A model generated the notes under the pieces. That model was given only the letters and a program-made list of their open reading frames with translations. It did no database searches and had not been told where the DNA came from. Shown here piece after piece: positions 31,122 to 52,369 of a stretch of DNA of 64,000 nt. The position numbers and the translations under genes are program-made. The stretch's first letter is position 1. Every line of letters begins with the position of its first letter. Source of the stretch: Promethearchaeati archaeon SRVP18_Atabeyarchaeia-1 (GTDB taxonomy: Archaea; Asgardarchaeota; Atabeyarchaeia; Atabeyarchaeales; Atabeyarchaeaceae); the NCBI GenBank assembly GCA_037308085.1, contig CP147779.1, positions 1,952,001-2,016,000 of the forward strand, read 5' to 3'.

Positions 31122-31123
31122 GA

Positions 31124-32792: not shown

Positions 32793-34856
32793 ACGTTTCA
32801 GATCAAGTACACGTACCAAAAAGGTGGCCCGCAATATTCGTGCGCATACCCAAACATCAAAGACTACCACAATAACATATTCATAGTCAAGGGAAGGAAC
32901 GATCAAGGAAAAAGCACTCTGATGCAGATGGTTGCCTTAGGTCTATATGGTCTAGACTCAGATGACATTGACAGCACACTCAAAGACAAGATGCGACGAC
33001 TCATATCGAGTGACACTGATATGTGTGAATTCGAATTCATAATCCAGAGTAGAGATGGCAACACCAGATTGGAGTCTAGCCTAAAGGATCATAAGATCTC
33101 GTTGTCTGAAAACGGCAAGGTGAAACCTCCGACCTACGTTCAAGATCACTTCAAAATACTTTTCGATGTCCCCGAAGAACCAACAAAGAAACTGATCTCT
33201 GCTTTAAGGTCAATAGATTATCACTTGGGCCAGTACGAGCTCTACGTTCAAAGATACAGAGGATGTATCAAGGAATCCCTCGACAAGATCGATGACTACG
33301 TGGATAAGGAGAACAGGCTTCAAGAGGAAGCGCAAGCGCTTGCCCTTAAGAACACTGAGCTTGGGAATCTTCAGAAAAGACTGGAAAGCGTGCAGGAAGA
33401 CTATTCTAAGATGGAGAAGGCATATGTGGTGGGCCTGCATAAGAGACTTTTCTACGATTTAACGGAGTTGGACAATCAGAAAGGGGAGCTAAACAAGCGC
33501 ATAAAACAGCTAAAGGAAGCTGGAGCCGGTGGAGGCAACAGGAAGTATGTCGAACGTTTGAAGATGTTTGGCGAGGTGCTGTCGACCCTTAAGCACTCGG
33601 TCAATACTTCGTCGTCTATCAATGATTTTCAGGATGAGGATGATAAAAAGCGCAACCTGTCCGTGGCCAAGGAAATCAATGACGTCTTTATGCCAAGAAA
33701 GATCAGCGATGAAAAGCAGAAGGGATGGAGGACTTTCTACGTTGACACCCTTAGAACCTTGGAGTCCAACCCATTGCAGAAGAAGAAGATGCCTGAGGAG
33801 GAACAGATAGAGCTGCTAGATCGGTTAATAGAGCTGCTCAAGGACTTTGTCAATATGAGCACAGAAATACCAGGAACTAACGGCAAGAATGTTAACGAGT
33901 TCTTGAAGGAGCTCGAATCAAGCAGGGGAAAATCGAAAAGCAGGATATCAGAGAAAGTCAGTCTGAATGAAGCGATAAAAGCCTGCAAGGAGATAATCGC
34001 AAACCTTGATACGTTTGCTGAAGTGACAGCGCAGATACCAAAAGAAGTTGCTGGAGAGGATGACCTTGATCAAGCCGATGAGGATCTTAAGAACGCAAAG
34101 AGAAAGTACGATAATAAGCTGAAGGAGTTCACCAACCTTCTTGGGCAGTATAATGCCATCCCGGAAAGAGAGAAGGTCGACCTACTGTCGACCAAAGAGC
34201 TTAGTGTTCATGATTACGAAAGCAAGAGAAAAGAGAAAACTGACCTGGATAGCAAGGTCAGGAACTGTCTCATAACTATAGAAAGCAAAAGGCAACTTGT
34301 TAATGATCTTTCAAAATCCAAGAAGCCTTCTGGCAGCCTCGACAAAGAAAAGCTAAAATCTGCATATGCTGCAACTGACGAGATTATGCGGAAAATCCAC
34401 TTGTGGAAGGACTACATAAGTTCGTTGGATCTTGAAAAGATGAGTTTCAAGAAGAGCCCTGATCTCGAAGCAGTCAAATTCTATGGCGCCCTTGGCGACT
34501 ACTTCGCCGATGTTCTAAAGGTCGTGTACTTCGAGAACAGGGGGTGGAATGTGCGGCAAATAGACTTCATGAATCGCCGTTACATTGTTGAAGCTAGAAG
34601 CCCGATAAGTTTCATCGATATCGGGACTGGGCACACTGCCCTAAACGCTCTACTAGCGAGAATGAAACAGGATTATGGCGGAAAGAAAAAGATCCTTCTC
34701 TTCGATGAGATAGGAATAATGGACGCTGGTAACATGGGCAGGCTACTGGAAGAAATAGGGAGACAGGTCAAAAGCAATGAAGTTCTATTCGCGTTGCTGA
34801 GTCAGGTCGATAATGAGCTCAACAGGCCGGAATTAGTACCTGTTAAACTCGAGTAG
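32793..34856 (+). CDS. SMC/Rad50-like ABC ATPase with long coiled coil (inferred ACG start)
   Basis: Walker A GRNDQGKST lies in frame upstream of the first ATG (32922). Signature-like IGTGH and Walker B LLFDEIG near the C-terminus; coiled-coil middle; no CxxC hook seen. Confidence 0.8.
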   Translation, partial: TFQIKYTYQKGGPQYSCAYPNIKDYHNNIFIVKGRNDQGKSTLMQMVALGLYGLDSDDIDSTLKDKMRRLISSDTDMCEFEFIIQSRDGNTRLESSLKDHKISLSENGKVKPPTYVQDHFKILFDVPEEPTKKLISALRSIDYHLGQYELYVQRYRGCIKESLDKIDDYVDKENRLQEEAQALALKNTELGNLQKRLESVQEDYSKMEKAYVVGLHKRLFYDLTELDNQKGELNKRIKQLKEAGAGGGNRKYVERLKMFGEVLSTLKHSVNTSSSINDFQDEDDKKRNLSVAKEINDVFMPRKISDEKQKGWRTFYVDTLRTLESNPLQKKKMPEEEQIELLDRLIELLKDFVNMSTEIPGTNGKNVNEFLKELESSRGKSKSRISEKVSLNEAIKACKEIIANLDTFAEVTAQIPKEVAGEDDLDQADEDLKNAKRKYDNKLKEFTNLLGQYNAIPEREKVDLLSTKELSVHDYESKRKEKTDLDSKVRNCLITIESKRQLVNDLSKSKKPSGSLDKEKLKSAYAATDEIMRKIHLWKDYISSLDLEKMSFKKSPDLEAVKFYGALGDYFADVLKVVYFENRGWNVRQIDFMNRRYIVEARSPISFIDIGTGHTALNALLARMKQDYGGKKKILLFDEIGIMDAGNMGRLLEEIGRQVKSNEVLFALLSQVDNELNRPELVPVKLE

Positions 34857-35762
34857 GTGATAACCATGAACGATTCAGGCATTTTGAGCGCGAATCAGAC
34901 CAGGGTGCTCGGGAAGTTGGTCTACAAAGGGAAAAACAGACCCAAGTCTAATCGTAAACTTGCCATTGGTCTGATCAAGAAAAAAAAGAAGAACCAGCAA
35001 GATTTCTACAAGTCTCTCTCCTTCCGTCAGAACGAAGCTAATCTACCCCAACATGAAATCGAAGAACTAGTAGCTAAGAACCTATTGAAGTTCATAAGCA
35101 GGAAAGACAAGCTACTCACGGTTACCTTGAAAGCGATGCTAGTTCTCGACTACGGAATCACAGACCTCTCGGGCAATATGGACGAGATGCTGAATGATTT
35201 TAACGAGGTCTTCTTCGAAGGAGTCATCAAGCTCTCCGATGAACCGCTAGAGGCCAGAGAGAAGGCGATTATATTGGGGCTGCTTGGCTTGGGGACAGTA
35301 TCAGAACAGTATTCTCTAAAGCCGGACAAAGAGAATCAAGAGGAACTCGGAAAATGCATTGATGACTTTGCCGTGAGCTTCATCAAGGAACTTGGCCCTG
35401 AATATGATGATGGAACCATCAAAGACCTGTGGCCGGGGGACGTAGTCGGCGAGGAGCCTGTGCTCGCACGTATGCGGAGAACAGATACTGTACAGGCCCG
35501 CACTGAAGGGGTATATAGGAAGAAGGAGGGCAGGCACTACCTGGACATACTGGCAGACGAGAAAATAGACGAGGCCAAACTGACATACCTATTTGAGAGG
35601 TTTTTCGACAAGAGACCCCTATCCTTTGAGGAAAAGAAGAAACTTGTCAAGGCCCTGGACGGCATCCAGGAACACGCGATTAGGCTAATCAGGAGCAACC
35701 CCCCATTCGATATGCTAGAGATTAGAAGACAGATCAGGCGCATCATAGAAAGTAAGCTCTGA
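34857..35762 (+). CDS. Hypothetical protein, possible N-terminal winged helix; last gene of the NurA-HerA-SMC operon
   Basis: Abuts the SMC stop; EIEELVAKNLL...LTVTLKA wHTH-like pattern. Confidence 0.7.
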   Translation: MITMNDSGILSANQTRVLGKLVYKGKNRPKSNRKLAIGLIKKKKKNQQDFYKSLSFRQNEANLPQHEIEELVAKNLLKFISRKDKLLTVTLKAMLVLDYGITDLSGNMDEMLNDFNEVFFEGVIKLSDEPLEAREKAIILGLLGLGTVSEQYSLKPDKENQEELGKCIDDFAVSFIKELGPEYDDGTIKDLWPGDVVGEEPVLARMRRTDTVQARTEGVYRKKEGRHYLDILADEKIDEAKLTYLFERFFDKRPLSFEEKKKLVKALDGIQEHAIRLIRSNPPFDMLEIRRQIRRIIESKL

Positions 35763-35872
35763 AAGGTTTCTACGATGATTACCACAACGTCTGCCTAGAT
35801 GAATATCTAGTTTGAAAAGCAAAGCTGGACTGATTCCAAGGATAGTGGTCCGGGCAAAGGTGATAGCGACGG

Positions 35873-36358
35873 ATGAGTGAAGCATCTACTGAAAAAACCA
35901 AGATCAGCTCGTCCGAGTTGCTGACGGCATTCATAATAGTCATCATGCTCTTGGGGCTTACCACGTATGAGGTCGCCAGAGCGAATTCAGCTATGGCTGA
36001 ACTGAGCGGCTTCATTAGCGCTGCAATTCTCGTAGTTGCTGGAATCATTCCACTAATTGGCGACATTTATCGCCGCCCATATATCTATTTCCTGATTTTG
36101 CCTGGTCCATATGTTGGCTCGTGGTGTCTGTCATGGAATTTTTGGTCTTTGTTCGAAATCTCTCCATTCTTAGCGGGAGTCTTAGCATCGGCTATCTCGT
36201 TGAGCCTGATTACTTCCGTTCATAGATTTTCGCGCAGACGAGGCTCCGTCAGCTCCGCCTTTGCATTCTCGGGCAAAGACGAGATTAAGCTGTCAAGCGT
36301 CCTCTTATTGTTCACGGGGTTATTTGCATTGGGAGAAGCTCGGAGGCTTAACACTTGA
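35873..36358 (+). CDS. Hypothetical integral membrane protein
   Basis: About five hydrophobic segments. Confidence 0.65.
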   Translation: MSEASTEKTKISSSELLTAFIIVIMLLGLTTYEVARANSAMAELSGFISAAILVVAGIIPLIGDIYRRPYIYFLILPGPYVGSWCLSWNFWSLFEISPFLAGVLASAISLSLITSVHRFSRRRGSVSSAFAFSGKDEIKLSSVLLLFTGLFALGEARRLNT

Positions 36359-36390
36359 GGTGGCCGCGCAGACAGAATTTTGACATCAGG

Positions 36391-36418
36391 ATTGCGTATA
36401 AGTCGGTTTTTGTGAGGG
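36391..36418 (+). other. dif-like Xer recombination site 1
   Basis: ATTGCGTATAA-GTCGGT-TTTTGTGAGGG (11-6-11). Confidence 0.65.
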
Positions 36419-36660
36419 ATCATCGTAACTCCCTGGAAGACAGATTTACGCCATTCATACGCTCCAGAAATTGCGCTAGTAAGTAGAGATTGTTCCCTCA
36501 GAGGGATCCAACTTGAATGGGTCCTCGAAGTACTCCACTGGAGTCTTTCCAGTCGACAGTTTGTGAGTTGCCGTTTTTGGGTAAGTTTTAAAAGGTTCAG
36601 AAAACCTCATAATATACGATTATCATCTTGGTTTTGGCGTTCCGTTTGTGGGGTGTGAGT

Positions 36661-38103
36661 ATGGTTTCGGGTCTTGTTATTGCGAAGGGCGAGACTGAGC
36701 TGGCTCTGCTGCCTTCGATGGCTAACAGGCATGGTCTGGTTGCAGGAGCCACGGGAACTGGAAAGACGGTGACCCTGCAGAAGATTGCTGAGAAGTTGAG
36801 TGGTATAGGAGTTCCAGTCTTCATGGCTGATGTAAAGGGAGACCTTTCAGGGATCAGCCAGGCAGGCGGCAGTAATCCGAAAGTTGAGGACAGGATAAAG
36901 ACTCTGCAAATCAAGGGTTTCACGTACGAGAGTTATCCTGTTGTTTTCTGGGACGTGTTTGGGCAGAGCGGCCATCCGATAAGGACCACAATAAGCGAAA
37001 TGGGGCCGCTGCTCATTAGCAGACTGCTGGGCCTCAATGATGTTCAGGAAGGCGTGCTCGCGACCGTCTTCAAGATTGCTGATGATAACGGATTGTTGCT
37101 CCTCGACTTGAAAGACCTCAGGTCTATGCTGCAAAATGTCGGGGACAATGCCAAGGTTTACACTACACAGTATGGGAACATTCCAACGGCAACCGTAGGC
37201 ACAATCCAGAGAGGGTTGCTTGAGCTTGAGCAGCAGGGCGGGGACAAGTTCTTCGGAGAGCCTGCTTTCGGTATAAACGATTTGATAAGGGTTGAGAACG
37301 GGAAAGGCGTTGTGAACGTACTGGCAGCAGACAAGCTCATAACCTCTCCAAAGGTCTACTCGACCTTCCTCCTCTATCTGCTGTCAGAGCTTTTCGAGCA
37401 GCTGCCGGAAATAGGAGATGTGGAAAAGCCAAAGCTTGTCTTCTTTTTTGATGAGGCGCACCTGCTTTTCAATGACGCGCCGAAGGCCCTGATTGAAAAA
37501 GTACAGCAGGTTGCCAGACTCATCAGGTCAAAGGGGGTTGGCGTCTACTTCATAAGCCAGAACCCCATGGACGTGCCTGAAATCGTTCTGGGGCAGTTGG
37601 GAAACAGGGTGCAGCACGCGCTCAGGGCATTCACGCCAATTGACCAGAAAGCGGTCTCTTCTGCAGCAAAGACCTTCCGGCCTAACCCGAAGATAAAGAT
37701 TGAGCAGGCAATCACTGAACTGGGTGTTGGGGAAGCGCTTGTCTCCTTCCTCGATGAGAAGGGCCAGCCAGGAATTGTCCAAAGGGCATTTGTTATCCCG
37801 CCAGGGAGTAGGATAGGCCCGATTACGCCGCAGGAGAGATCTGCCATCACTTCAAGGTCTGCTATGGCTGGGAAATACGAAAAGGCAATTGACAGGGAAT
37901 CCGCTTATGAGGTGCTACAGAGAAAGGCCCAGCAGGCTGCCCAGCAGGCTGCGAAGCCCGCAGCAAAGGCCGCTCCAAAAGGAAGGCAACAAAAGAGCGT
38001 TATGGATGCCGTGACCAAGAGCTTCGCTACCAGCGCGAGCCGGCAGGTTGGGAACCAGATAGTCCGAGGGCTACTTGGCTCCATTTTTGGGAAGAAGAGA
38101 TAA
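36661..38103 (+). CDS. DUF853/YjgR-family HerA-like ATPase
   Basis: [52 protein letters not shown]. Confidence 0.92.
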
Positions 38104-38115
38104 TCCATAGGATCT

Positions 38116-38159
38116 GGGGCAAGGAGACACCCGTCTTCAAACCGGGTAGGAATTGCCCC
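38116..38159 (+). mobile_element. Solo IS605-type left-end hairpin (possibly acting as a terminator)
   Basis: GGGGCAAGGAGACACCCGTCTTCAAACCGGGTAGGAATTGCCCC parallels the left end at 3338-3380. Confidence 0.55.
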
Positions 38160-38330
38160 ACTCTCTCCGCGGATTTCCTAATCTCCGGAGATGACTTGCA
38201 TGTTTGCCGTCGCTTTTCCCGATCCAGAAAGACGTAGATGGGTCTAAGCTTCTTCTCGGTTCTCATGCACCAGTCCGATTTTCCTTCAAGGCTTCTCAGG
38301 TCATCGGCTTTTGCGTGGCTGGTAGCCGAG

Positions 38331-38358
38331 GATACGTATAAGTCGGCTTTTGTGCGGT
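38331..38358 (+). other. dif-like Xer recombination site 2
   Basis: GATACGTATAA-GTCGGC-TTTTGTGCGGT. Confidence 0.65.
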
Positions 38359-38532
38359 ACTCCCTGCATTTCAGAGTTGGCGTGCATCACCGAAAGTTCG
38401 GTCGAGAAAGCCAAACCAGACATCAAGGCACTGCAAAGGAGCGGCGCCGACTCGAGACGTAGCACGCGTCAGCCATTGCATCTTGAAAAAAGAAGTTGCA
38501 GCCGAGGGTATTGGCCCCCAGCTCTGAATTCT

Positions 38533-39966
38533 TCAGCCTTTGCGTTTCCGGATCAGCAATGCAGCGACTCCCATCGTTGCAAACCCAGCGACAAACCCGA
38601 CAGCGAGGCCGTAGATCGTTATGACTACTGGAACTCCAGCCGTTCCCGGAACATACGTGCTGTTGAACAGCTCTCCGATCTGTCCGCTTCGATATTCAGT
38701 GAACCAGACATGATATGGATTGCCTGACTGGATATCTATAGACAGAGGCAGCGCTTGTGCAGTCGGAACTGTGTATAGGAGGATCGTTCCGGTGAATGTC
38801 GGCGATGGTCCGGGCTGAATTACTCCTATGTGGTTGTAGAGCGGCTCTGTAAACCACGCGTAGCCATCGGCGCTGGCGGCTATGTCCCACGGTCTAGCTG
38901 GCGGCGGAACATAGCCTACTGCCGTCACGGTGGTCGGAATACTCCATACAACAAAAGGATCGCCTGTAACATTGAGTGGACCAGCGAACGCAGTGGGCGC
39001 TACTGCAGCGAACTGGATGGTAATATTCAGTGTCTTAGGATTCAAAGTCGCAGGTTCTAGTGGTAGAGTTGCCGTAGTCATCGATATGCTATAGGAGGAC
39101 TTGTTTGCGCTGCCGGCAAGCTGCTCATCGACCAGTGAGCTGAGCGGCTGAGTAACCCAAACATTATCTGCTGTATCGACATCCAAATCCCATGTATACC
39201 CTGGTTTAGTCAAAGGATAACTCAGAGCACTCGGCGCTAGAGGTAAGGGTATCTCATAGAGTCTGTCATACATGATATCTGTTATGAAGAGGCAGGTTCC
39301 GTTAGTCGTTATCCTCGTCGGGAAAGCAGCCGAAGAGCCCGTTGGCAACTTCATTGTATACATGAAAAGTGCACCAGTGGCCGGCACCAATTGGTAGAAT
39401 TGTGTTCTGTTGATGCCTGTAAACCAGACACTCCCTGACTGCAGAACAAGGTCTAGCGGCTTTACGTTAAGGTTCACCAAGCTGTAGTCAACCAGCTGGC
39501 CTGTGACCCAATTCAAGCTGCTGATCATAAAGCTCGTCGGGTTAGTGAACCATACCACTTTTTGCGTCTCATTTACTTTGATGTAGAGTGGAGATCGTTT
39601 CAAACCAGTATCAGGGAGTACCCATTCCTTAGCGGTCGTCGAAGTCTGGGTATCCGTGGTCGCGGGAGTCAATTGGTAGACGACGTCCCTTGCGATGTCG
39701 GTCACCCAGCTATAACCATTGGAGTCGTAGGCAATACCGAAAGGCGTGCGGGCAGGGCCAAGGTATGCTATAGTAGTAAGCGGTATAGCCGGCAGAAGAT
39801 ATTCCCGAATCAGCGTGGTCAGGGGAGGATCCGGGGACCGCTGCACTGATGGCATCTGTGTCACACTTGCACCAGGAACACTAGTTGTCGCTGACTGCGG
39901 CAATACGAAGATGCTGATAGATAGGAGAAGAACAAGCATTACGCAGAAAGAATTCCTCGTTGACAT
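38533..39966 (-). CDS. Secreted Vgb-like beta-propeller protein with C-terminal TM anchor
   Basis: Signal peptide; repeated PxxI...VWFT units; C-terminal TM helix followed by RKRKG. Confidence 0.8.
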   Translation of the reverse strand: MSTRNSFCVMLVLLLSISIFVLPQSATTSVPGASVTQMPSVQRSPDPPLTTLIREYLLPAIPLTTIAYLGPARTPFGIAYDSNGYSWVTDIARDVVYQLTPATTDTQTSTTAKEWVLPDTGLKRSPLYIKVNETQKVVWFTNPTSFMISSLNWVTGQLVDYSLVNLNVKPLDLVLQSGSVWFTGINRTQFYQLVPATGALFMYTMKLPTGSSAAFPTRITTNGTCLFITDIMYDRLYEIPLPLAPSALSYPLTKPGYTWDLDVDTADNVWVTQPLSSLVDEQLAGSANKSSYSISMTTATLPLEPATLNPKTLNITIQFAAVAPTAFAGPLNVTGDPFVVWSIPTTVTAVGYVPPPARPWDIAASADGYAWFTEPLYNHIGVIQPGPSPTFTGTILLYTVPTAQALPLSIDIQSGNPYHVWFTEYRSGQIGELFNSTYVPGTAGVPVVITIYGLAVGFVAGFATMGVAALLIRKRKG

Positions 39967-40393
39967 CTCCCACGTTTCACTCCTTGCTCCCTCAGTTTCT
40001 TTACAGATAGTCCGTATATATGATCAATACTAGTATATATCCACCCTCCCCCCCGGGCGGAAGTGTTAAGTGAAGGATGAGCAGAGTTTCAAGGTCTTCA
40101 AAGAACTCAGGAAGACCCCGCACGTTGTTCTCAGAGACGAGGAGAGAAAGCTAGTCGACATACTGAGTAAGGAACTGAGGCTTAATCGACTTTCGGTGTA
40201 GTTTGCTTGGTGCATCAGATCCAGTCCGAGATTAGATTCATGCGTGATCGTAAGAGGGTCCTCTCGTGAGAAATTACACATTTCGAAAATACAGCGGCCA
40301 ACGCGGATCTTCGCATCCACTGTCAAAATAGCTAGCATTGCGGACCCTCAAGGCATCTTTATATCCCATTTTTCTGCCGAACTTGAGACGTAC

Positions 40394-40421
40394 ACTGCAT
40401 ATAACTCGGCTTATGTGAAGC
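40394..40421 (+). other. dif-like Xer recombination site 3
   Basis: ACTGCATATAA-CTCGGC-TTATGTGAAGC. Confidence 0.72.
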
Positions 40422-40564
40422 CAACCCCGCTATTCCAAGCCTGCTTAGCATTAGGGTGACAGCTTGCGAACACACTCATTACTGTCATATCAGATTGATT
40501 ATCCGGATGCGTCGTCGGCCTGCATGGTATAGCTTAGCGCGCGAAAACGAAAGAGGCGGGTTTG

Positions 40565-43081
40565 TTAGAGGCTTCCGAATTCCGCGCGGGCTATTATGTC
40601 GTCCTGTATTGGCTTCCCGAGATCTGTGAAGTAGGCGCAGTAGCCGGATACTCTTACCACCAGGTCTCTGTATTTTTCTGGGTTTTTCTGGGCGTCTCTC
40701 AAGGTTTGGCTGTCCACGACATTTAACTGGACTTGGCTTCCCCCCAATTTGAAGTATGCTCTGATCAGACTGGCCACCTTCTGTCTCCTCTCCTCATCTC
40801 TGAGTAGCATGGGAAGCATTTTGATGTTCAGTGAGCAGCCGTTAGCGATTTTTGTATGTTCAATCTTTGAGCACGATTTTAGTATGGCTGTTGGTCCGTT
40901 TTTTTCAGCTCCGTTACTTGGGGACAGGCTGTTTGATGTTGTTTCTCCAGCTTTTCTTCCGTTGGGTGTTGCTCCAAGTAGGTTCCCGTCTAGGACGTGA
41001 AGTCCATATGAGAAGAATGAGGCTCTGTAGGGTCCTCCTCTCCAAGCCTTTTTACTTGTTACCATGTCGCAGAATGTTCCCGCGATTTCTCTGGCTATCC
41101 AATCGGCGTAATCGTCGTCGTTTCCGTATTTTGGAGCCCTGTTTATTAGTATCTGACGCAGCCTTTCCCTCTTCTCTCCTCTAAAATTGTTTTCTAGTGC
41201 GTCTATCAATTCACTCATGGTTACGGTTTTGTCGTCGAAAACCACTTTTCTTATTGCAGCTAGGGAATCAACTGTTGTGCCTAATCCGCGTCCACTTATA
41301 GAGTTAAAATTGTACCTCGCTCCTCCACTGGTCATATCCATGGCGTTTTCCACGCAGCCCTCAAGCGTGGCTGAGATGTAAGGATTAGGAAACATCTTGT
41401 CGTAGACCTCGTCCTTAATCTCCACCAGCTGAGATATGACGTCGACGCTGTGCTGAAGCTGTTTCTTGAAGGCATCCATTACCTCTTCGAATGTTCTGAA
41501 TTCCCTCGGATCCCCGGTGTCTGCTCCGGTTCTGCGTCCGAGCATTCTGATCATTCCGTTGGTGAGCATCATTTCCAGAATACCCACCAGCGATATGTCG
41601 TTTCCGCTGGTGCACCCGAAGGTGTTTCCGGCGCTTGTAGGCTCCACGCATCCGATTACCGCGTAGTCCCAAGCGTCCCCAAATCCTGTTCCATTATTGA
41701 TCAGGGCGGGGATGGTAACATCGTCGTTGTATAGCGCGGGTCCCGAGGTCACGCTGTAGACTTCGGCGATTTTTCGAAGCCACTCCTCGCTGGACTTGCT
41801 TGAAACACGTACAGAGAAGGTGTTGGTGAGATTCTTCATGTTTTTACAAGCATCCATCCACACGTAGGAGAGCTCGTTAGTGGCATCCTCCCCATCTCTA
41901 CCGACTCCCCCAATGGTTAGGGCGTCCTCGTCGGCACCGAGTTCTGAGGCGGTGTGCTTTCCGAAGCTGGGAAGAAGGAGCAGATTGTAGCTGAACTTGA
42001 TTAAAAGCTCTTCCACAAGCTCCAAAGCCTGTTCGCGGGTGATTTTTCCATTTTCGATATCCTTCTTGTAGTAGGGGTAAAGATACTGGTCAACCCGACC
42101 CACGGCTCCAATTAAACCCACACCATAACTTATTGAAGCCATGACTTGGGTGAACCATAGGAACTGGCAAGCTTCGTAGAAGTTTCGAGGTGGATTGCAG
42201 GGAACCCATCTACAGTTTTCAGCCATCTGGAGCAGTTCGGCTTTCCTCTGAGGATTATCTTCTTTCAACGCCATTTCTTCAGCCAACGATGCGAAGCGTT
42301 GACCAAACATTTTTGCGGCGTCGCAGCAGATCATTACGGCATCGAGGAACTTCTTTTTTTCAGAGCCCACGACGGTTTTCTTTATCTCCCGCGCCTTTTC
42401 TTTCACTCCCTTGAACCCTGTTTTGATTACGTTGTTGATACCGATAACCAAATGGCCCTGAACATCAAAAACATTCATCACCAAGTTTGGATTATTAAGC
42501 GTCACCTCATTCAAGCTACTAGATATGTAGCGTAGTCTTCCCCCGGCGTATAACTTCATGATTTTCCACATGTTTTTGAAGCCGAAGTTCTTCAGTCTCC
42601 TCAAGTTGGCTCCAGGGCCGAGGCTGATTCTGAAGTGTAGTCCTCTCTCCTTCATGATCTTGGTTCGGTGGTCCCTTACCGTTTTGCCCTTCCAGTACTT
42701 GAGCGTCTTCCCCAGTTCTTTCTCTTCCTCTCCTGATATGTGGTAGGGGTGGTCCTTCCTATTTTTGAGGTTTTTAAGGTCTGTTCTTAGGACGTAGTTT
42801 AGTTCGCCGCGCTCTATTGGAATAATAGTTGCTACCAGCTTGCTGGAACGGTTTCCCACTATTTGTTCTTCGGGAAGTATGTAGATGGTCATTTTTTGTA
42901 GAGTGTTTTCCAGAGCCTTCGCGGCTCGGATGGCTGGGTGCATACCCTCTGTTTCCTTGTAGGATTCGGTGTAGTACCGGGCGCGCTCTATGCATATTTC
43001 ATAGGGTGCTTCCAGAATCTTTCTTCTATAGATTTGTGTTCTGGAAGGACTGGAGGTTTGGGTTTCCGTAACTTGGACCGT
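40565..43081 (-). CDS. Glycyl radical enzyme (PFL2/dehydratase-like, single-Cys GCVEP); inferred ACG start
   Basis: IGCVEP and VRVSGY motifs. The conserved N-terminus RRKILEAPYEICIERARYYTESYKETEG is in frame upstream of the first ATG (42943). Confidence 0.88.
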   Translation of the reverse strand, partial: TVQVTETQTSSPSRTQIYRRKILEAPYEICIERARYYTESYKETEGMHPAIRAAKALENTLQKMTIYILPEEQIVGNRSSKLVATIIPIERGELNYVLRTDLKNLKNRKDHPYHISGEEEKELGKTLKYWKGKTVRDHRTKIMKERGLHFRISLGPGANLRRLKNFGFKNMWKIMKLYAGGRLRYISSSLNEVTLNNPNLVMNVFDVQGHLVIGINNVIKTGFKGVKEKAREIKKTVVGSEKKKFLDAVMICCDAAKMFGQRFASLAEEMALKEDNPQRKAELLQMAENCRWVPCNPPRNFYEACQFLWFTQVMASISYGVGLIGAVGRVDQYLYPYYKKDIENGKITREQALELVEELLIKFSYNLLLLPSFGKHTASELGADEDALTIGGVGRDGEDATNELSYVWMDACKNMKNLTNTFSVRVSSKSSEEWLRKIAEVYSVTSGPALYNDDVTIPALINNGTGFGDAWDYAVIGCVEPTSAGNTFGCTSGNDISLVGILEMMLTNGMIRMLGRRTGADTGDPREFRTFEEVMDAFKKQLQHSVDVISQLVEIKDEVYDKMFPNPYISATLEGCVENAMDMTSGGARYNFNSISGRGLGTTVDSLAAIRKVVFDDKTVTMSELIDALENNFRGEKRERLRQILINRAPKYGNDDDYADWIAREIAGTFCDMVTSKKAWRGGPYRASFFSYGLHVLDGNLLGATPNGRKAGETTSNSLSPSNGAEKNGPTAILKSCSKIEHTKIANGCSLNIKMLPMLLRDEERRQKVASLIRAYFKLGGSQVQLNVVDSQTLRDAQKNPEKYRDLVVRVSGYCAYFTDLGKPIQDDIIARAEFGSL

Positions 43082-43243
43082 TTTTGATCTCCCCTTGAAC
43101 CTCTTAGGTTAACAACATCGTTTAAGAATATTAGCTTTTGTTTATGCAAAAGCCATGCCCAGTGGGGGTCAACCAACCATTAGAGTTTTCAGAAGAGATA
43201 GCGGGATTTTTTCGAAGAGAAACGTTCAGCAGAGAGGAGATTT

Positions 43244-43391
43244 ATGGGTAAAGAGATTTCTTGGAAAAATAAACTCGTTTTCGGTGATTGTCAGAATATG
43301 CAGGAATTGGAAGATAGTAGCGTTCATTTGGTGGTTGCTTCTCCATATTCTAACGCTCCTTTTGATTATCCGGACCTTTTTGAGAGTTATG
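43244..43391 (+). pseudogene. 5' remnant of an MTase paralogous to 27868-28770, truncated at an IS junction
   Basis: WKNKLVFGDCQNMQELEDSSVHLVVAS-PYSNAPFDYPDLFESY matches WINKIVFGDCQNMQELEDKSVHLVVTSPPYFNAPFDYPDLFKSY. Confidence 0.85.
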
Positions 43392-44841
43392 GAAAGGGTT
43401 CGGAACTGTTCGGATGGACTGTATAAATACGTGTAATCACATGTAAGACAATATGGAAGGAGAACTACGGGATGGAGAGCTTCACCCGGGCAGCCTGCGG
43501 ATCCTGGCGGTCGCACGTGAAGAGGCAGCCACCCACCGGGGGCACCACAGGTGGAAGGCGAGGGAAGGAGAAAAGAGAACCATCACGGTCGGATACGAGC
43601 CCTCCGCAGCAACACTCAGATACCTTGAGGACATGAGGGACGCGCTGACGGGCGCTGTCGCCCACGCATACGCCCTTGCCAAGACTGGTGGCCTGCTCCC
43701 GAGCCCAGTGGCGCTGAGGAGGAGGGTGAAGCCCTGGTTCGACGCCCACTACGACTACGCGAGGCACCACGTCAACCCTGTGTGCAGGACTGCTGTATCA
43801 CTGCTCAGGTCGTACAGGAAGAGGCACCACGAGCTCGCAATGCCCCGGGTCAGGAGGCTAGCCATGAGGATCGACTCCGAACTCTTCCGCGTCCTGGAGA
43901 AAGATGATGGAACCGTGACTGTGAGGGTGACGCTGAAGCCCTTCACCTACGAGACCATCACCTTCACTCCAAGCCACAGGAAGTGGAGCGAGTACAGCAG
44001 GGGAGCAGTGAGCGAACTACTGCTGACTGACAGGAGGCTCTGCGTAACCTTCATCGTGGGGCCTGATGGCGACGGCGGAAAGCCTCTCGGCGGGAGACTC
44101 GCAGGCTCAGACCTCAACTTCCGAAGCATAGACTCCACAGCGTTCAGAGGTGGCAAGCTGGAGCCACCCTGCACTGAGCCTCTCAACAAGATAGTGCAGG
44201 TTCAGAACGATTTCTCAAGGAGGCGAAGGAGACTCCAGCTACACATCAGGAACCCAGAGAAGAGAGCAGCGAAGCTCGCTGAGACAGGGGGCAGGCAGAG
44301 GAACAGGGTCCGGGACGAGCTCCACAAGCTCTCAACCAGGATCATCGGGGAGAACCCTGGCACCTCATTCATCTTCGAGGACTTGAGGAACATCCGGGGA
44401 AAGGGGGAAAGGAAGAGGAAGAAGGCGAGCAGGAAGCTGAGGACGTACCTGAGCCGATGGCCCTACAGGATGTTCCAGAGCATGGTCGAGTACAAGAGCC
44501 GATGCAGGACGATTTACGTGAGCCCGAGGGGGACCTCCACGGAGTGTCCCGTCTGCGGTGGAAAGTTAGAGCACCCAGCTTGGGCCATATCGAGATGCAA
44601 AACCTGTGGCGTGGACTACCAGCGGGATAGGCTCGCCTCGCTGGCGATACTCCGCCGTGGTCTGCGCCTTTGCCGCTACCCGTTTACGGTGAGTGCGGGC
44701 GCCTCTTGGCAGCAGATGAGGGATGAATACCTGTACGCCCCCGGAGAGCCGAGGCCGGGAGAACAGGCTGGACCAGATGCCGCCAACGCTCCGAATAGAA
44801 ACGCGGAAAACTTCCATGGTTTTCCACATTTCTAGAAACGG
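43391..44841 (+). mobile_element. IS607-derived tnpB-only element
   Basis: GG at both junctions (TAT|GGAAAG and GAAACGG); truncated genes on both flanks; vestigial TnpA HTH at the ORF start. Confidence 0.6.
43453..44835 (+). CDS. tnpB: TnpB nuclease (triad intact) with N-terminal degenerate IS607-TnpA-like HTH
   Basis: GSDLN, FIFEDL, CPVCG..CKTCG, QRDRLAS. Confidence 0.85.
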   Translation: MEGELRDGELHPGSLRILAVAREEAATHRGHHRWKAREGEKRTITVGYEPSAATLRYLEDMRDALTGAVAHAYALAKTGGLLPSPVALRRRVKPWFDAHYDYARHHVNPVCRTAVSLLRSYRKRHHELAMPRVRRLAMRIDSELFRVLEKDDGTVTVRVTLKPFTYETITFTPSHRKWSEYSRGAVSELLLTDRRLCVTFIVGPDGDGGKPLGGRLAGSDLNFRSIDSTAFRGGKLEPPCTEPLNKIVQVQNDFSRRRRRLQLHIRNPEKRAAKLAETGGRQRNRVRDELHKLSTRIIGENPGTSFIFEDLRNIRGKGERKRKKASRKLRTYLSRWPYRMFQSMVEYKSRCRTIYVSPRGTSTECPVCGGKLEHPAWAISRCKTCGVDYQRDRLASLAILRRGLRLCRYPFTVSAGASWQQMRDEYLYAPGEPRPGEQAGPDAANAPNRNAENFHGFPHF

Positions 44842-45065
44842 TTGATCACGTCGTTGTTTCTTGTCCTATCGGAGGTAATGTTGAATGGATCTACAGCGAA
44901 GTCAACACGGGGACAGTAGAGATTTCTAGTGACTATGTCTTTTGAGTTCTTAGCGATACTCCATTCAGGAACCACATTGTTGTTCCCGAAGATGCGATCC
45001 AGGGACCTCAGGATCTCGCTATATTCGCTAACGTCAGGTTGCACCAAACCAGAGAGATTGGTCAT
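44842..45065 (-). pseudogene. 5' fragment of an unknown (possibly nuclease-like) gene cut by the IS right end
   Basis: MTNLSG...VVPEW...YCPRVDFAV reading runs into the IS end. Confidence 0.45.
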
Positions 45066-45162
45066 GGTGGAGCAGGCATAGCCTTTCAGACATATTAGTA
45101 CTCTTGTTGCTAAAGGATTGGAGGACGCTTATGCGCGTTATTTGTTTAGAGCTTTTGCTTTG

Positions 45163-45190
45163 CCTTCGAATAAGTCGGCTTATGTGAAGC
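45163..45190 (+). other. dif-like Xer recombination site 4
   Basis: CCTTCGAATAA-GTCGGC-TTATGTGAAGC. Confidence 0.72.
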
Positions 45191-45364
45191 CGTACGAGAG
45201 GCTCGTCTAGGGGTGACGAAGCCAGAAGCTTGACAAGATGGCGTACCTCAATGTGTGGCTGAGATTCGTGTCTTCTTAAGCTACAGATACCAAGAAAAAC
45301 TTAAATGCAATCATAATAGCTTCCTATCCAAGCTGCCTCAGCCAGGAGAGGGGATGTAGCGAGT

Positions 45365-46174
45365 TTGGTTCTCGGCTTGATTGACTGGATCGCAGTTAAT
45401 TGGCTCGCCATTATCGGTCTTGTATCCACTTTTCTTTTCGGACTTCTTGCAGTAGTGTTTTACTATAGGAGTAAGAAGAATAAATCTCCATCCTACGCTA
45501 TTCGTAGCACAAATCTCGTGAGAGATCTGATCAGCAAATTCGAACACCTAGAAGTTCGGTACCGACGCCAGCGACTGGCGAACATGACTGTGACAAAGAT
45601 CGTGTTCTGGAATGCTGGCCGCGATACAATTCAAAGGGGAGACATCGCGTCAGCAGAGCCTGTGGCAATATACGCGCGTGAGCGTGTCAAGATACTTGAC
45701 GCGAGAATAGTTCAATCTGTTGAGCCAGCAAACAAATTCGGTCTCGCCGTGACTGAAAACCATTCCCTTGTCAGAATCGGATTTGAGTACATTGACAAGG
45801 GCCAAGGAATAGTTCTGCAGACACTTCACACGGGACAGTCAAGTCAAGATATTGATGTCCGCGGAAAGATAAAGGGAGCCGGGGGCCTGGTCAGAAGGCG
45901 CGTCCAGCGTCCTCCAGATCTCTCCTCCATACCCTTTTTTGGCAAACGATTGTCAGCGAAGCAACGGCGATACGTTACGGCGATAGTTTTCTCACTGATT
46001 CCTGTTGTCCTGGTACCTCTTGGATATTTCTCGTGGCTCCCCACTGAATTGGATTTTCGTTTCTACTTTTTTGTAGCCTTCTTCGGCGTATTTACGATCT
46101 TGTGTTGGTCGATAGCCCTCTCTACCTTGAGAAAAAGGTTACCTGATAAACTGGAAGTCTTCTGGGAAGACTGA
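45365..46174 (+). CDS. Hypothetical membrane protein (one N-terminal and two C-terminal TM helices)
   Basis: Hydrophobicity pattern; FWNAG beta-sandwich-like middle. Confidence 0.7.
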   Translation: MVLGLIDWIAVNWLAIIGLVSTFLFGLLAVVFYYRSKKNKSPSYAIRSTNLVRDLISKFEHLEVRYRRQRLANMTVTKIVFWNAGRDTIQRGDIASAEPVAIYARERVKILDARIVQSVEPANKFGLAVTENHSLVRIGFEYIDKGQGIVLQTLHTGQSSQDIDVRGKIKGAGGLVRRRVQRPPDLSSIPFFGKRLSAKQRRYVTAIVFSLIPVVLVPLGYFSWLPTELDFRFYFFVAFFGVFTILCWSIALSTLRKRLPDKLEVFWED

Positions 46175-46639
46175 TATTACCTGGAGTTCATGCTGATATG
46201 ATCTGGATGTGACCGTCTTCTCAGCGAACTAATGACAGTGCATAATTCCGCAAGCCTTCATTCTCGTGGCGAAACAAGCAACAACTGATCTATCGTATTC
46301 CAAGCTCATCTAAGAGGACAAGTGACTGATACCTGGGTACGTGCGATCAATGCATAGGAAGAGAAGTCAAACCACCTTTTCCAAGACCTATTCCGTCATA
46401 TCATGGGACATTTCCATAATCGCATGTTTATCGATGGTGTGCACGCAAGTCAGCCTGTGAGTATTCCCGCGCGGTACTGGGTAAAAGTGAAGATCCTCCA
46501 ACCAGTCCGCGGAAGAACGCTGGGGCGAATGAGACTTCACGCGATACACGTGAACCATCAGACCACTCCAACGATCAATCTCAGGAATTCGTTAACAAAC
46601 ATTTTTGGATCTTGGAAGCTATTCGGTTCAACCTATACT

Positions 46640-47119
46640 TCAACTGTCTCTACCATAATGCCTTTCCAGAAAGTAAGCAAGGAACCAAGCACTGAAGTAG
46701 ATGAGGGCGGCATAATCATACTTGTTCTCCGGAGGAAATGCCTGTGGCAAAATCAGATAGAGAGGCCAGACTATAATATAGAAAACCGCGAGGGGGGTCC
46801 CCGCGATTGCCAGTGTCCTTAAGCCCGAGTGAACCACGAAATGCGAGAACCCACAATTTCTAGTCCACGTTGCTTTCAATATTCCCCTGTACTGTGAGTT
46901 AAGATAATCAAAAATGATGCAGAATGAAAAGAAAACGAATGCCGCGACTGGGATGATTGACACTATCTGACCCCATGGCGGATAATATACATGAGATGGT
47001 AGGAACTCTGCATTGAGCCTACTAAACATCAGAGTGAAGAATACCCCAAATACGGTCACTATCAATACTGGTTCATAGTCTGTCGGATCTTTTTCCTTTG
47101 CCTTGTGATTTGCGGGCAT
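46640..47119 (-). CDS. Hypothetical multi-pass membrane protein
   Basis: Four hydrophobic segments. Confidence 0.6.
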   Translation of the reverse strand: MPANHKAKEKDPTDYEPVLIVTVFGVFFTLMFSRLNAEFLPSHVYYPPWGQIVSIIPVAAFVFFSFCIIFDYLNSQYRGILKATWTRNCGFSHFVVHSGLRTLAIAGTPLAVFYIIVWPLYLILPQAFPPENKYDYAALIYFSAWFLAYFLERHYGRDS

Positions 47120-47318
47120 ACCGTTACCCCCTATTACCCTTCTCCTCACCGAGTGCAGTTTAACCTAACTCCCTTATAAGTTTGTGGTGAATTGTCAAAT
47201 CTATTAGACATGGCGCTAAGGAAGAAGCTAGAGGTTGGGGAGCAGGGGAGAAGAGCAGAGGGAATTTGGCTGACTTGGACTTTGAGATATAGCAGTAAGT
47301 CATTTGAAATGTAGATTG

Positions 47319-47346
47319 GTTTCACCTTATTCGGCTTAAGTGAGTC
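47319..47346 (+). other. dif-like Xer recombination site 5
   Basis: GTTTCACCTTA-TTCGGC-TTAAGTGAGTC. Confidence 0.55.
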
Positions 47347-47479
47347 AGTTGAGCCACAGGTGGAGAGTCGAAGACAGTTACCCAGGCTACAGGAATCACT
47401 TTCCTAGCTGATGATCGTGTACAAAGTCTGTTCCGCATCCCGGCTATTGGCTACATTTATAATTGATCTTCTACGTAAT

Positions 47480-48724
47480 ATGTTCGGGATGATGGCTGTG
47501 CGAATTGACAAGGAAAGTTCCTCATTGGAATCTGCGGTCAAACCATTGCTTGAGGCTGCTGTTGCCGAACAATGGAAAGATGTGTTGAGTATCTTGTACC
47601 TCAACGGCTCTGTTATTGCACTGTCTGAGGATCTGCAGATGTTCTGTTTGGTGAGTGCTAGCGGACCGTACCAGGATATCGATCGCTCAATGGACATCTT
47701 GAAAGGTAAATCGGAAGTCGAACTTGTCCCTGTTTTTAAGGAATTCTTCAGTATGCTCTTGCCGAGGATCATGGTCATTCTACGGAAAGAAGAAGTCGCC
47801 TTGGCAAACAAGGAAGAAAAACAGCAAATGTTAGCAATGATGCTTATGGCTGAATTCCAGGGAGAACAGCGGACATATCAAAGAGATATTTCTCGAATTA
47901 TCGTCCAGGGCGCGTCATCACTTTCGGGTTCCATAGCCGTTGGGGTCGCAAAAACACTTCTAGAGATGAGGGACAGGCACATACATTCTGCTCTTGATGA
48001 GGAAGATTATGAGTTGATGATAGAGGGTTTGAGAAGGCTGAATATCATCGAGTCTGCCCTGCAGGTAAGCTTGTGTCCTGAGTGTGCCAATTACCAATTT
48101 ACTGTCTCAAGATACCCCTCGTTGGTCGAGGTTTGTCCGAGGTGTGGTTCCGAATGGGTCACTCTCACGCTTTATAGCCTTCAGCCTCCCTACAGCCTGA
48201 CGAAGGCTGACAATTCGGATCTTCCACTCTTCATTTCAGCCTACCTCAAACACAAGATAGGTATAGCAGCACCGACAGAGATGGTCAAGATCCTGCCCAA
48301 GGCCGTCATAAAGACAAATGAAGACAAAACGATTGAGGTTGATGTATACCTGCCGGACTACGATGCAGGGATAGAATGCAAAGTGTACGAGGATGCTTTT
48401 GCCCCTATGACCCAATCAAGGCTGGGCACCATTGTGGGTCATCTCATACCACAAATTAAGAGGTACACAAGCATAGGAATAAAGACTGTGATAGTCGTCA
48501 CGAACTTGGATGAGGGATCGCTGGGCAAGCTGAAAAGTGGTCTGCAGGACAGGCTGGCGAATGAAGATCCGAAGCCCACGGTCGAGGTTCTGCCGGGAGA
48601 GATCAACACTTTGCTCAATTGGCTAAATCAGCGGTCTTCGGCAATAGCTAAACAGATTCAAGATTCCTTAAACAAGGCACTTACGGATAGCATTCAAGGA
48701 AAACATCCATTGGATGAAAAGTGA
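47480..48724 (+). CDS. Zn-ribbon plus PD-(D/E)XK restriction-like nuclease
   Basis: CPEC...CPRCG; EVDVY...GIECK; QIKRY. Confidence 0.7.
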   Translation: MFGMMAVRIDKESSSLESAVKPLLEAAVAEQWKDVLSILYLNGSVIALSEDLQMFCLVSASGPYQDIDRSMDILKGKSEVELVPVFKEFFSMLLPRIMVILRKEEVALANKEEKQQMLAMMLMAEFQGEQRTYQRDISRIIVQGASSLSGSIAVGVAKTLLEMRDRHIHSALDEEDYELMIEGLRRLNIIESALQVSLCPECANYQFTVSRYPSLVEVCPRCGSEWVTLTLYSLQPPYSLTKADNSDLPLFISAYLKHKIGIAAPTEMVKILPKAVIKTNEDKTIEVDVYLPDYDAGIECKVYEDAFAPMTQSRLGTIVGHLIPQIKRYTSIGIKTVIVVTNLDEGSLGKLKSGLQDRLANEDPKPTVEVLPGEINTLLNWLNQRSSAIAKQIQDSLNKALTDSIQGKHPLDEK

Positions 48725-48809
48725 GCGAGGCCTTAGCGCTGCAAAGCGCAGTACGAAATTTGGGCCCCTTATCGAATTGCCACTAAATCGACACCGTCCA
48801 CGCATTATC

Positions 48810-49388
48810 CTAGTCGATGTCTAGTTGAGAGTATTCATTTGCCCTTCTGGTACCTATTACGAAGACACTCTTGGTACTCTTATTGAGGACGAGATAGGCG
48901 ATCTCAGGATTCTCGTAGACTAGTTCTACTACCTCGTCGACTTCCTTTCCGCTTATGACAAGCCCAACCAAGCAACTCATAAATCCGTCCGAAAAGGATC
49001 CCCATCTATAATAAAGGCTGGACTTCGCGACGAGTCTCGGTCCACTGATAGCTCTCGATGGACGTTCGAACATGCAATGGAACAAGGCGACTTCTTGCAG
49101 ACGAATATCAGTAAAGTCAGGAAAGCAATAGAAACCCCATCTCAGTCGAGATAGGAGTGTCTGCTGATTGACATCTATATCATACTCCCAGGGCGGTCCC
49201 TCATTTCGTGGCCTCTTGAATTGCAGACCAAGGATTTTGTTATTTACGGCGATAATCCTATCTATGGGCAACTTTTTCTCCTTTACTTGCCCTATTGAAT
49301 ACACCCTAACCCTCCATCCGATTCTTCGGAAGTAGTCGGCGATGCCAATCAGGATCCAGTCGGCATAATTGTCCTCCGTGGGAATCAT
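48810..49388 (-). CDS. PD-(D/E)XK-like nuclease (QFK variant)
   Basis: TED...EKKLPID...GLQFKRP. Confidence 0.6.
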   Translation of the reverse strand: MIPTEDNYADWILIGIADYFRRIGWRVRVYSIGQVKEKKLPIDRIIAVNNKILGLQFKRPRNEGPPWEYDIDVNQQTLLSRLRWGFYCFPDFTDIRLQEVALFHCMFERPSRAISGPRLVAKSSLYYRWGSFSDGFMSCLVGLVISGKEVDEVVELVYENPEIAYLVLNKSTKSVFVIGTRRANEYSQLDID

Positions 49389-49494
49389 ATCCGAATGCCT
49401 CCTTGGAAATCACTTCGGATTTCCTGCAATAGTTTGGATCACGCCATCTGCTGCCACCCGTTTCTCCTAGAAGCTACTTCATTAGATCCGGGTC

Positions 49495-50454: not shown

Positions 50455-50505
50455 AGGTCTTCAAGGTAGCTTGTATGCATGACTCACTATAAGAATCTTG
50501 AGAGC

Positions 50506-51135
50506 CTACCGCCTCCGCCTCTGATAAAGTATCGATTTCTCCCAGTCATTTCCGTACATCATTCTCAACTCTTCCTGATTTTTCGTCCACAAGCTCTCAA
50601 AGTGAGATATTGACTCTTTGAATGCCTCAGGAGAGAACTTTCTAATTGTGTGCGTGGAATTCCCAAGCGCGTCACGCTTCAAGTCGGCTCCTATATCGAT
50701 GAAGAATGATTCTTTGGAACCTATCCATCGCTCATGGACCTTATTTATCTTTGAGATTTCGAAGTGTGGTCTGTCCCTAGCACATGTTTCCGCGTTTCTG
50801 AGGCATTTGTTGAGGTCCTTTATGGCAGAAGTAATAATACGTATTCCAGAGGATTTCGGTATTGAGTCTAAATAGCCAAAAGTTGTCTTGTCGATAAAGT
50901 CCAGCTCGGCAATCACGTCCCCAGAAAGCTGTTCAAACCACTTTTCGATGCTGTTCTCTGCCTTGTTTTTCTGACCTTTGTTGATTATGGATTCATCCCC
51001 CAAGGTTACATTCGGGTTTGCCGTGGGCTGCTTTAGCTCTTGAATTCTTTGCATTATCCTGCCTTCCATTTCCCGCAGGTATGCCAGAACAGAATCTCTG
51101 CCAAGTGCCTTTGACGGCAGCTCCGCTTCGCTCAA
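50506..51135 (-). CDS. Hypothetical protein, possible PLD-like nuclease (HER motif)
   Basis: LDFID...IRIIT...VHERWI...IGADL...FESLW resembles HDR-type PLD folds; 4-bp overlap with the upstream gene. Confidence 0.5.
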   Translation of the reverse strand: MSEAELPSKALGRDSVLAYLREMEGRIMQRIQELKQPTANPNVTLGDESIINKGQKNKAENSIEKWFEQLSGDVIAELDFIDKTTFGYLDSIPKSSGIRIITSAIKDLNKCLRNAETCARDRPHFEISKINKVHERWIGSKESFFIDIGADLKRDALGNSTHTIRKFSPEAFKESISHFESLWTKNQEELRMMYGNDWEKSILYQRRRR

Positions 51136-52307: not shown

Positions 52308-52369
52308 GGAAATATAAAGGTTTGTTCCCTTTGGTTCGCAGATCGCGGCTGAACAACATCCTCGGCAGC

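Follow-up and report, generated by a model that had tools for sequence, protein, structure and literature searches.

Short gene modules bounded by dif-like sites have been described in Acinetobacter, where they are moved by XerC/XerD as pdif modules and are also found at chromosomal dif-like sites (PMC6449649, PMC12907356, PMC13141974), and their mobility was first inferred through comparative genomics. [quoted passage not shown] In Archaea, XerA and dif form a chromosome-resolution system (PMC2958812, PMC3646895, PMC8371274), and reviews call archaeal dif single copy; two XerA-binding sites have been described for dif of Thermoplasma acidophilum, and two copies for S. solfataricus. Integrons, including archaeal integrons and clusters of attC sites lacking integrases (CALINs), have been described by Ghaly et al. 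(PMC9668308). We report here an array of five directly repeated dif-like sites, which separate four blocks of accessory genes in the chromosome of the Asgard archaeon SRVP18_Atabeyarchaeia-1 (contig CP147779.1). The window, i.e. the whole stretch of 64,000 nucleotides that was analyzed, corresponds to positions 1,952,001-2,016,000 of this closed chromosome (G000; 2,808,651 bp, 49.6% GC), and it also carries a gene for a XerA-like tyrosine recombinase with a further dif-like site upstream of it. Eukaryotes have no closer known relatives than Asgard archaea, and a gene-capturing array would bear on how these archaea take up foreign genes, bacterial ones among them. No description of a dif-type module array in Archaea was found in the literature searched. 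In Atabeyarchaeia-1, 14 integrated elements of 1.3-40 kb have been detected by read mapping, and 10 of the 18 elements across both complete Atabeyarchaeia genomes were also seen as circles (Valentin-Alvarado et al., PMC11529989); neither Xer nor dif is mentioned in that paper.

The locus shares features with each of these systems. As in Acinetobacter, 28-bp Xer-type sites of 11-6-11 geometry enclose short blocks that hold one to a few genes, the genes are self-contained, run in either direction and have unrelated functions, and a host Xer enzyme is the presumed catalyst. The pdif sites, however, alternate in inverted orientation (C/D, D/C) and are served by two recombinases, whereas the sites found here are all direct and one XerA-like enzyme is available for them; in addition, the array lies on an Asgard archaeal chromosome rather than on a plasmid, and its modules have so far been found in one context each. 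With IMEX arrays it has in common that direct repeats of dif or degenerate dif-like sequences flank inserts without an integrase, which in the IMEX case accumulated through one Xer-mediated integration after another. Phages or large islands that carry replication or transfer genes make up the IMEXs, and they occupy a single chromosomal dif, whereas the blocks of the present array are 2-5 kb long, a separate conserved site with another spacer is the better dif candidate, and a circular form was not found in IMG/VR, INPHARED or PLSDB. The archaeal XerA/dif system resembles the locus in its XerA-like enzyme, in sites of 28 bp whose inverted arms of 11 bp flank a 6-bp spacer, and in a site adjacent to xerA; dif is single copy there, whereas five direct copies bounding accessory genes are undescribed, and the enzyme of the window scores below the NCBIfam cut-off for XerA. 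Integrons likewise combine a tyrosine recombinase with a row of accessory gene units split by sites of one polarity, and both would be platforms for import across lineages. In contrast to integrons, the locus has no IntI-specific domain, no structured attC and no attI-proximal array, its genes have their own upstream regions and run in both directions, and its sites are plain cores in double-stranded DNA. The attC sites of integrons are imperfect hairpins, longer than the 28-bp sites by tens of bases, and are recombined in folded single-stranded form, and integron cassettes mostly share one orientation and lack promoters. The array does not qualify as an integron under the criteria of Ghaly et al. 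(PMC9668308). The term “integron-like” used in the original prediction holds as a loose analogy, and attC hairpins are lacking as it had said, but the enzyme is XerA-like and not IntI, the genes run both ways, and the array lies 16 kb from the recombinase gene, on its 3' side. Functionally, the array would most likely be nearest to bacterial dif modules and IMEX arrays, and separate from the xerA-proximal dif or operator site.

In the following, class 1 denotes the array sites (spacer NTCGGY) and class 2 the xerA-proximal sites, both labels having been coined in this analysis (Table 1). The original prediction had described five 11-6-11 sites with a shared NTCGGY core in one orientation, and every one of them was found in its place on the + strand. 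Each comprises 28 bp, with two imperfect inverted arms of about 11 bp ending in ATAA/TTAT and a 6-bp spacer; 4 to 8 of the 11 arm positions are dyad-symmetric across the sites of this genome by manual count (8/11 in both site 3 and site 4). The degenerate 17-mer WTAANTCGGYTTWWGTG with at most one mismatch has 4 matches in the window as compared with 0.00 expected from 100 shuffles, and a 16-mer with at most two mismatches has 6 as compared with 0.62 expected, site 5 being among them. In the whole 2,808,651-bp genome, all exact matches of the 16-mer (n = 4) are within the array, and the spacer plus right-arm half, TCGGYTTWWGTG, occurs six times, always on the + strand, i.e. at the five array sites and at one solo site at 2,232,171. 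This solo class-1 site (2,232,171-2,232,198) has a degenerate left arm and is located between divergent genes. In a scan with a position weight matrix (PWM), the array sites score 28-38 bits, and shuffled genomes give 1-3 matches of at least 16 bits per strand; since this matrix was built from the five array sites themselves, a matrix of the arms alone, with the spacer disregarded, gives a fairer test, and all of its matches of at least 20 bits fall at 1.988-2.039 Mb plus 2.232 Mb. The intergenic clustering that a PWM scan had been expected to give was obtained, and the full motif is restricted to the 11-kb array stretch of the closed genome, its polarity being always +. The dif-type site is thus not single copy per replicon here, with five clustered copies and one solo copy. 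Another dif-like arm pair, with a third spacer (AGAAGG), was seen at genome positions 2,038,599-2,038,626, apparently within a predicted open reading frame (ORF).

All five sites are intergenic according to the ORF map, in agreement with the original prediction, and for sites 1-3 this was also obtained from independent gene calls on Logan contigs. A chance placement of five out of five sites in non-coding DNA is unlikely by our own, uncomputed estimate. The polarity of the sites is independent of the direction of neighboring genes, and their distances to gene starts and stops vary, none being fixed. A genome-wide operator pattern at a fixed distance from promoters, which had been named as the outcome speaking against dif-type sites, was not seen. 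Nothing is conserved among the sites outside the 28 bp. Of the five 88-nt stretches around them, four do not fold better than shuffled sequence (z +1.0 to -1.4), and the stretch at site 4 has a z of -2.45, with 6 of 200 shuffles folding equally well; an Rfam search of the sites matched no family. A promoter, a terminator or a known RNA was considered and rejected, because the sites are unrelated to promoter-like or terminator-like positions and have no Rfam match. The end of an IS200/605 insertion sequence was also rejected, since the TnpB copy in the array stops at 44848, which is 315 bp before site 4, and other copies are without the motif. When putative circle sites were rebuilt from neighboring arms, their dyad symmetry was not clearly better than that of the chromosomal sites (manual count). 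Cumulative GC and AT skews form a plateau at 1.35-2.15 Mb, with the array at 1.99 Mb on its right shoulder, and Orc1/Cdc6 genes are at 0.64 and 0.68 Mb; the replication geometry is ambiguous. A candidate for the chromosomal dif at 1,381,367, near the GC-skew maximum, was rejected because its 15 bits are at noise level.

The genome has four PF00589 matches, and the only Xer-sized one is the recombinase of the window. Its best matches in PDB are the XerA structures 5HXY and 4A8E (T. acidophilum and Pyrococcus abyssi), and its best NCBIfam model is recomb_XerA_Arch with 183 bits, under the cut-off of 220. The integron-integrase model TIGR02249 gives 87.7 bits against a cut-off of 265, in a match split into two stretches. 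The columns matching the catalytic residues R, K, H, R, H and Y are invariant across five recombinase homologues. The class-2 site, unique in the genome, is preceded by a TATA-like box and followed by this gene's start codon. Arms of the TGCACATAA type are found 12-24 bp upstream of the xerA start codon in G000 and in the sister genome G002 (CP147780.1, Candidatus Atabeyarchaeum deiterrae Atabeyarchaeia-2), and just upstream of it in the second family genome, G001, and in the JGI contig L044. Orthologous class-2 sites precede xerA in G001, G002 and three JGI contigs, and in every one of the four family members examined. That class 1 and this xerA-proximal site have arms in common is the main new argument for reading the class-1 sites as XerA sites; their 11-6-11 geometry and ATAA/TTAT inner arm ends mark them as dif-type. 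The spacers of the two classes are unrelated and would thereby keep class 1 and class 2 from recombining together. A recombinase gene with an adjacent site is a known layout, as in xerS-difSL and some archaeal xerA/dif modules (PMC5357621), and the same layout has been proposed for haloarchaea (PMC11840125). Judging from its sequence and place, the class-2 site is probably a native xerA-dif module, an autoregulatory operator, or both.

The sites delimit four intervals of 1.9-4.7 kb, each with one self-contained gene block. The cargo functions are unrelated, and the genes lie in both orientations with 200-bp upstream regions. The earlier description of the cargo agrees with Pfam (HerA_C/DUF853, Vgb_lyase-like, a PFL-like glycyl radical enzyme plus an intact TnpB element, and ORFs without a family match). 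No recombinase gene is present within the modules, and these show no replication or virion genes, having one to a few genes each in 2-5 kb. The protein of module A is 64-69% identical to many bacterial homologues (Betaproteobacteria, Chloroflexi and others), and its DUF853 gene (window 36649-38109) is 87% identical at the nucleotide level to the taxonomically unassigned ENA contig k141_4376830. Module B has a homologue of 72% nucleotide identity in G001, near which no dif-like sites were found. The glycyl radical enzyme gene of module C is 87-88% identical in nucleotides to Freyarchaeia genomes, is present in four of five genomes of the Freyarchaeia genus concerned and did not turn up in either G001 or G002; for these reasons it was probably transferred from Freyarchaeia to the genome of the window. 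As compared with a complete Freyarchaeia genome, about 3.1 kb is missing here between this gene and a further homologous piece of 160 bp. The stretch homologous to Freyarchaeia spans window positions 40544-43390. No activating-enzyme gene was noticed in module C, and the glycyl radical enzyme may be an orphan. In look-ups of assemblies, the exact protein was found in only one sequencing run. The TnpB-only element of the IS605 type has at least six more copies in the genome at 75-78% identity, Logan assemblies break at it, and its other copies carry no dif-like motif.

Table 1. Positions of the dif-like sites, the recombinase gene, the modules and the surrounding island (window coordinates unless another sequence is named).
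Feature	Position	Strand	Remarks
Class-1 dif-like site 1	36391..36418	+	Spacer GTCGGT
Class-1 dif-like site 2	38331..38358	+	Spacer GTCGGC
Class-1 dif-like site 3	40394..40421	+	Spacer CTCGGC; top PWM score among the five
Class-1 dif-like site 4	45163..45190	+	Spacer GTCGGC
Class-1 dif-like site 5	47319..47346	+	Spacer TTCGGC; left arm the most degenerate of the five
XerA-like tyrosine recombinase	63081..63953	-	Pfam Phage_integrase + SAM_1; 290 aa
Class-2 dif-like site	63977..64004	-	Extends past the window edge at 64000; array-like arms; spacer TACAGT (strand of the gene)
Class-2 site, G002	2,039,652-2,039,679		Near-perfect palindrome; arm dyad 10/11; spacer TACATC
Class-2 site, L041 (JGI contig)	1530-1557		
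Class-2 site, L044 (JGI contig)	9950-9977		
Module A: bacterial-type DUF853/HerA_C ATPase	36628..38103	+	Pfam HerA_C, E 1.5e-220
Module B: Vgb_lyase-like beta-propeller protein	38533..39966	-	Pfam
Module C: glycyl radical enzyme	40565..42943	-	PFL-like + Gly_radical domains
TnpB (IS605 OrfB/Cas12f-like) element inside module C	43395..44848	+	Intact; multicopy in genome
Module D: two or three ORFs	45365..47149	.	Without Pfam family match; putative membrane proteins in the original prediction
Hypervariable island, about 40 kb	22600..63000	.	Between conserved DUF3604 gene (20338-22539) and xerA; contains the array

The island that contains the array differs between relatives. In a comparison of G000 with G002, the DUF3604 gene (87% amino acid identity) and xerA (67%) are conserved, the interval between them (about 40 kb and 31 kb, respectively) is unrelated in content, and synteny returns 2-6 kb past xerA. 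In the syntenic island of G002, two class-1 sites at a distance of 9.6 kb, on the strand seen in G000, enclose an operon of ORFan genes, to the nature of which PHROGs and Pfam searches of the 9.6-kb module gave no clue; the site at 2,014,532 has an arm dyad of 9/11 by manual count. A single class-1 site is present in L044, 4 kb downstream of xerA, and a single one in G001, 0.8 kb from a contig end. Wherever the orientation can be judged (G000, G002 and L044), class-1 sites are on the strand opposite to that of xerA. The number of array-type sites thus varies among relatives (1, 2 or 5), and the surrounding content is unrelated between genomes. A second array was found in G002, with three direct, intergenic dif-like sites at 1,804,738, 1,809,637 and 1,813,702; it fills a G002-specific segment of 10.3 kb (1,804,597-1,814,930) that is flanked by collinear core genes, and G000 has 1.9 kb in its place. 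One of its modules encodes an 879-amino-acid WD40-Roc GTPase-TIR protein. In L044, two class-2 sites 4.4 kb apart (5512-9977) flank a second xer paralogue, 75% identical to the adjoining xerA, and the same block holds HEPN/nucleotidyltransferase, PIN and TumE toxin-antitoxin genes. The arms of these sites look like hybrid junctions, and from its sequence the 4.4-kb block has the appearance of a small, self-encoded unit that integrated at the site next to xerA.

Outside the family, the motif has no wide distribution among Asgard archaea, with four single matches of the 17-mer in 397 other genomes, which is near chance. A scan of genome contigs gave seven matches, estimated to be no more than chance, and several of these resemble ordinary single dif sites (bacteria and one Bathyarchaeia metagenome-assembled genome). 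BLAST searches of INPHARED and PLSDB with the site gave only matches of E about 1-9. Matches in IMG/VR come from one virus-like contig of about 73 kb that recurs across samples; since the motif is inside an ORF and a poxvirus-type peptidase gene is present, we treated them as chance.

From these results, we consider that the array is an accessory class of XerA sites at which imported blocks of one to a few genes were stacked by site-specific integration, and we give this reading about an even chance. XerA binding, strand exchange, circle integration and present-day mobility are inferred from sequence, as follows. Two XerA monomers would occupy the 11-bp arms and cut at the edges of the 6-bp spacer, and strand exchange would take place with another site carrying a matching NTCGGY spacer. 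A circle with one site would integrate at a resident site and become flanked by two direct copies, and repeated rounds would stack the four self-contained blocks. Recombination between any two direct copies would then release the intervening blocks as a circle, and the class-2 site, having the same arms and another spacer, would be unable to cross with the array. The conserved, non-palindromic spacer NTCGGY is what is expected of a strand-exchange core and not of a symmetric operator. A broader proposal is a two-tier Xer system in Atabeyarchaeia, in which xerA-dif would serve the chromosome and a second spacer class, bound by the same enzyme, would serve as a hairpin-free gene-capture platform. 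Such a platform would stack and release one-to-few-gene blocks from other archaeal classes and from bacteria, and would correspond, in Archaea and with direct repeats and a single recombinase, to dif modules and integrons; we put it forward tentatively, as possible and somewhat doubtful. The Xer-mediated stacking of modules that the original prediction had proposed is in part supported, by recurrence in relatives, by foreign cargo and by the location of the second G002 array at a synteny break. A breakpoint inside the core was not found, and module gain, loss or reordering with a breakpoint in the 6-bp core, which had been predicted for relatives, was seen in none of them. Of the predicted synteny breaks at the sites, the second G002 array is the nearest case, its first site being 114 bp past the last syntenic gene, but its three sites have three different spacers.

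These unlike spacers weigh against the stacking of imported blocks at class-1 sites, and so do several other results. The DUF853 and glycyl radical enzyme genes were clearly imported, as judged from sequence, but no dif-like sites occur around the DUF853 relative on k141_4376830 or in the Freyarchaeia relatives of the glycyl radical enzyme gene, and homology of these cargo genes to their relatives stops about 20-140 bp from the ORF ends, not at the sites. Archaeal XerA is active in vitro without FtsK (PMC2958812, PMC5357621), so that an array of five direct repeats, if active, would be expected to collapse in the absence of some restraint; several array arms are degenerate. Among G001, G002, L044 and the searched metagenome contigs, no module was found in a second context, which is weak evidence in view of the small sample, and no module absence with a breakpoint in the spacer was found, G001 and G002 being too divergent to reveal it. 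Near-identical Logan and other assemblies have only the reference arrangement, and neither an empty site nor a junction of an excised circle was found. No plasmid or virus with a class-1 site was found in IMG/VR, INPHARED or PLSDB, and the rest of the 40-kb island is equally variable and has no such sites. The recombinase may also be an element-borne integrase rather than a housekeeping enzyme, in view of its sub-cut-off score, the identity of 67-68% within the family and the duplication in L044. The Logan contig SRR29366204_478881, which is 100% identical to window positions 30013-40430 (10.4 kb), ends 9 bp past site 3; as a sign of rearrangement this end is only suggestive, because it mismatches the branch point expected of a deletion between sites 3 and 4.

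Other explanations of the array were weighed against the same observations. If class 1 were the true chromosomal dif, the array would consist of stacked Xer-exploiting elements in the manner of IMEXs at V. cholerae dif1, and the site at the xerA promoter would be only an operator. The arms and geometry of class 1 indeed resemble canonical dif, and by manual comparison about 17 of the 22 arm positions of the G002 copy match dif of Escherichia coli. The position of the array at the skew plateau (1.35-2.15 Mb), on its right shoulder, the lack of an integrase in the modules, and the combination of one good and one degenerate arm in several sites, like attL/attR hybrids, also fit. We nevertheless regard this explanation as unlikely, because single class-1 sites are also found far from the island (G000 2,232,171; G002 1,804,738), leaving no unique locus, and flanks are not conserved between genomes, whereas the class-2 site is single-copy, position-conserved and a near-perfect palindrome, as an xerA-dif module should be (PMC5357621, PMC11840125); the small modules (one to a few genes in 2-5 kb), in which genes for replication or virions are missing, also differ from such elements. 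Genuine Xer sites could, on the other hand, be old, the blocks having arrived by homologous recombination, illegitimate insertion or insertion-sequence activity, so that a fossil array without capture function is seen. The end of donor homology near ORFs instead of at sites, the TnpB element within module C and the variation of the remaining island without such sites are all in line with this, but each interval is one self-contained block with the sites exactly in the gaps, and independent arrays are present in G002, and we consider a fossil array rather improbable.

Two further explanations assign the sites to DNA binding without recombination. XerA may bind them for an architectural or regulatory role, like the XDS of Bacillus, which are bound by XerD and involved in SMC unloading, or like dif-associated domain boundaries in euryarchaea. 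Clusters of Xer sites with non-recombination roles are known (cited in PMC11840125), and inert sites would more easily explain degenerate arms and a stable direct-repeat array; however, the asymmetric spacer and uniform polarity kept across genomes are unneeded for binding alone, site number and position vary between relatives, and the sites are in accessory DNA that differs between species, which makes this role quite unlikely. It is very improbable that the motif resembles dif by coincidence and is instead an operator for some other DNA-binding protein or what is left of another repeat. The dyad symmetry would suit a dimeric regulator, and helix-turn-helix (HTH) proteins are encoded in the island, e.g. 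the HARE-HTH protein at 49495-50454. The sites, however, share a polarity that is independent of the orientation of the genes, and their spacing from gene starts and stops varies; conservation ends at the limits of the 28 bp, and the motif does not recur elsewhere in the genome, so that a dispersed regulon is lacking; the same arms are found at the xerA promoter in four genomes, and the motif is unassociated with other TnpB copies.

If imported gene blocks were indeed stacked at an accessory class of XerA sites, the array would provide a concrete and testable entry route for individual foreign genes into Asgard archaea, distinct from viruses, integrative and conjugative elements, aloposons and classical integrons. 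Xer-mediated module traffic, documented only in bacteria in the literature searched, would then extend to Archaea with a single recombinase, and the textbook view of archaeal dif as a single-copy housekeeping site would be challenged. The 28-bp site and the 290-aa enzyme might also be developed into a tool for genetic work on these lineages, which are uncultured.

Several genes around the array were also noted. A defense-like cluster is located to its left (window 24416-35762) and encodes a UvrD/PD-(D/E)XK helicase-nuclease, an N6/N4 DNA methylase and NurA-HerA, together with proteins of 644 and 301 amino acids without assigned function. Between the array and xerA there is a type I restriction-modification operon (hsdR, hsdM and hsdS; window 56269-61836), and a non-orthologous type I operon (28-31% identity) occupies the same relative place in G002. 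Just past xerA, at genome positions 2,017,394-2,019,946 (window coordinates 65394-67946), three tandem paralogues are 57-77% identical to one G002 protein, and two Logan contigs begin at one common point within this tandem-paralogue region.

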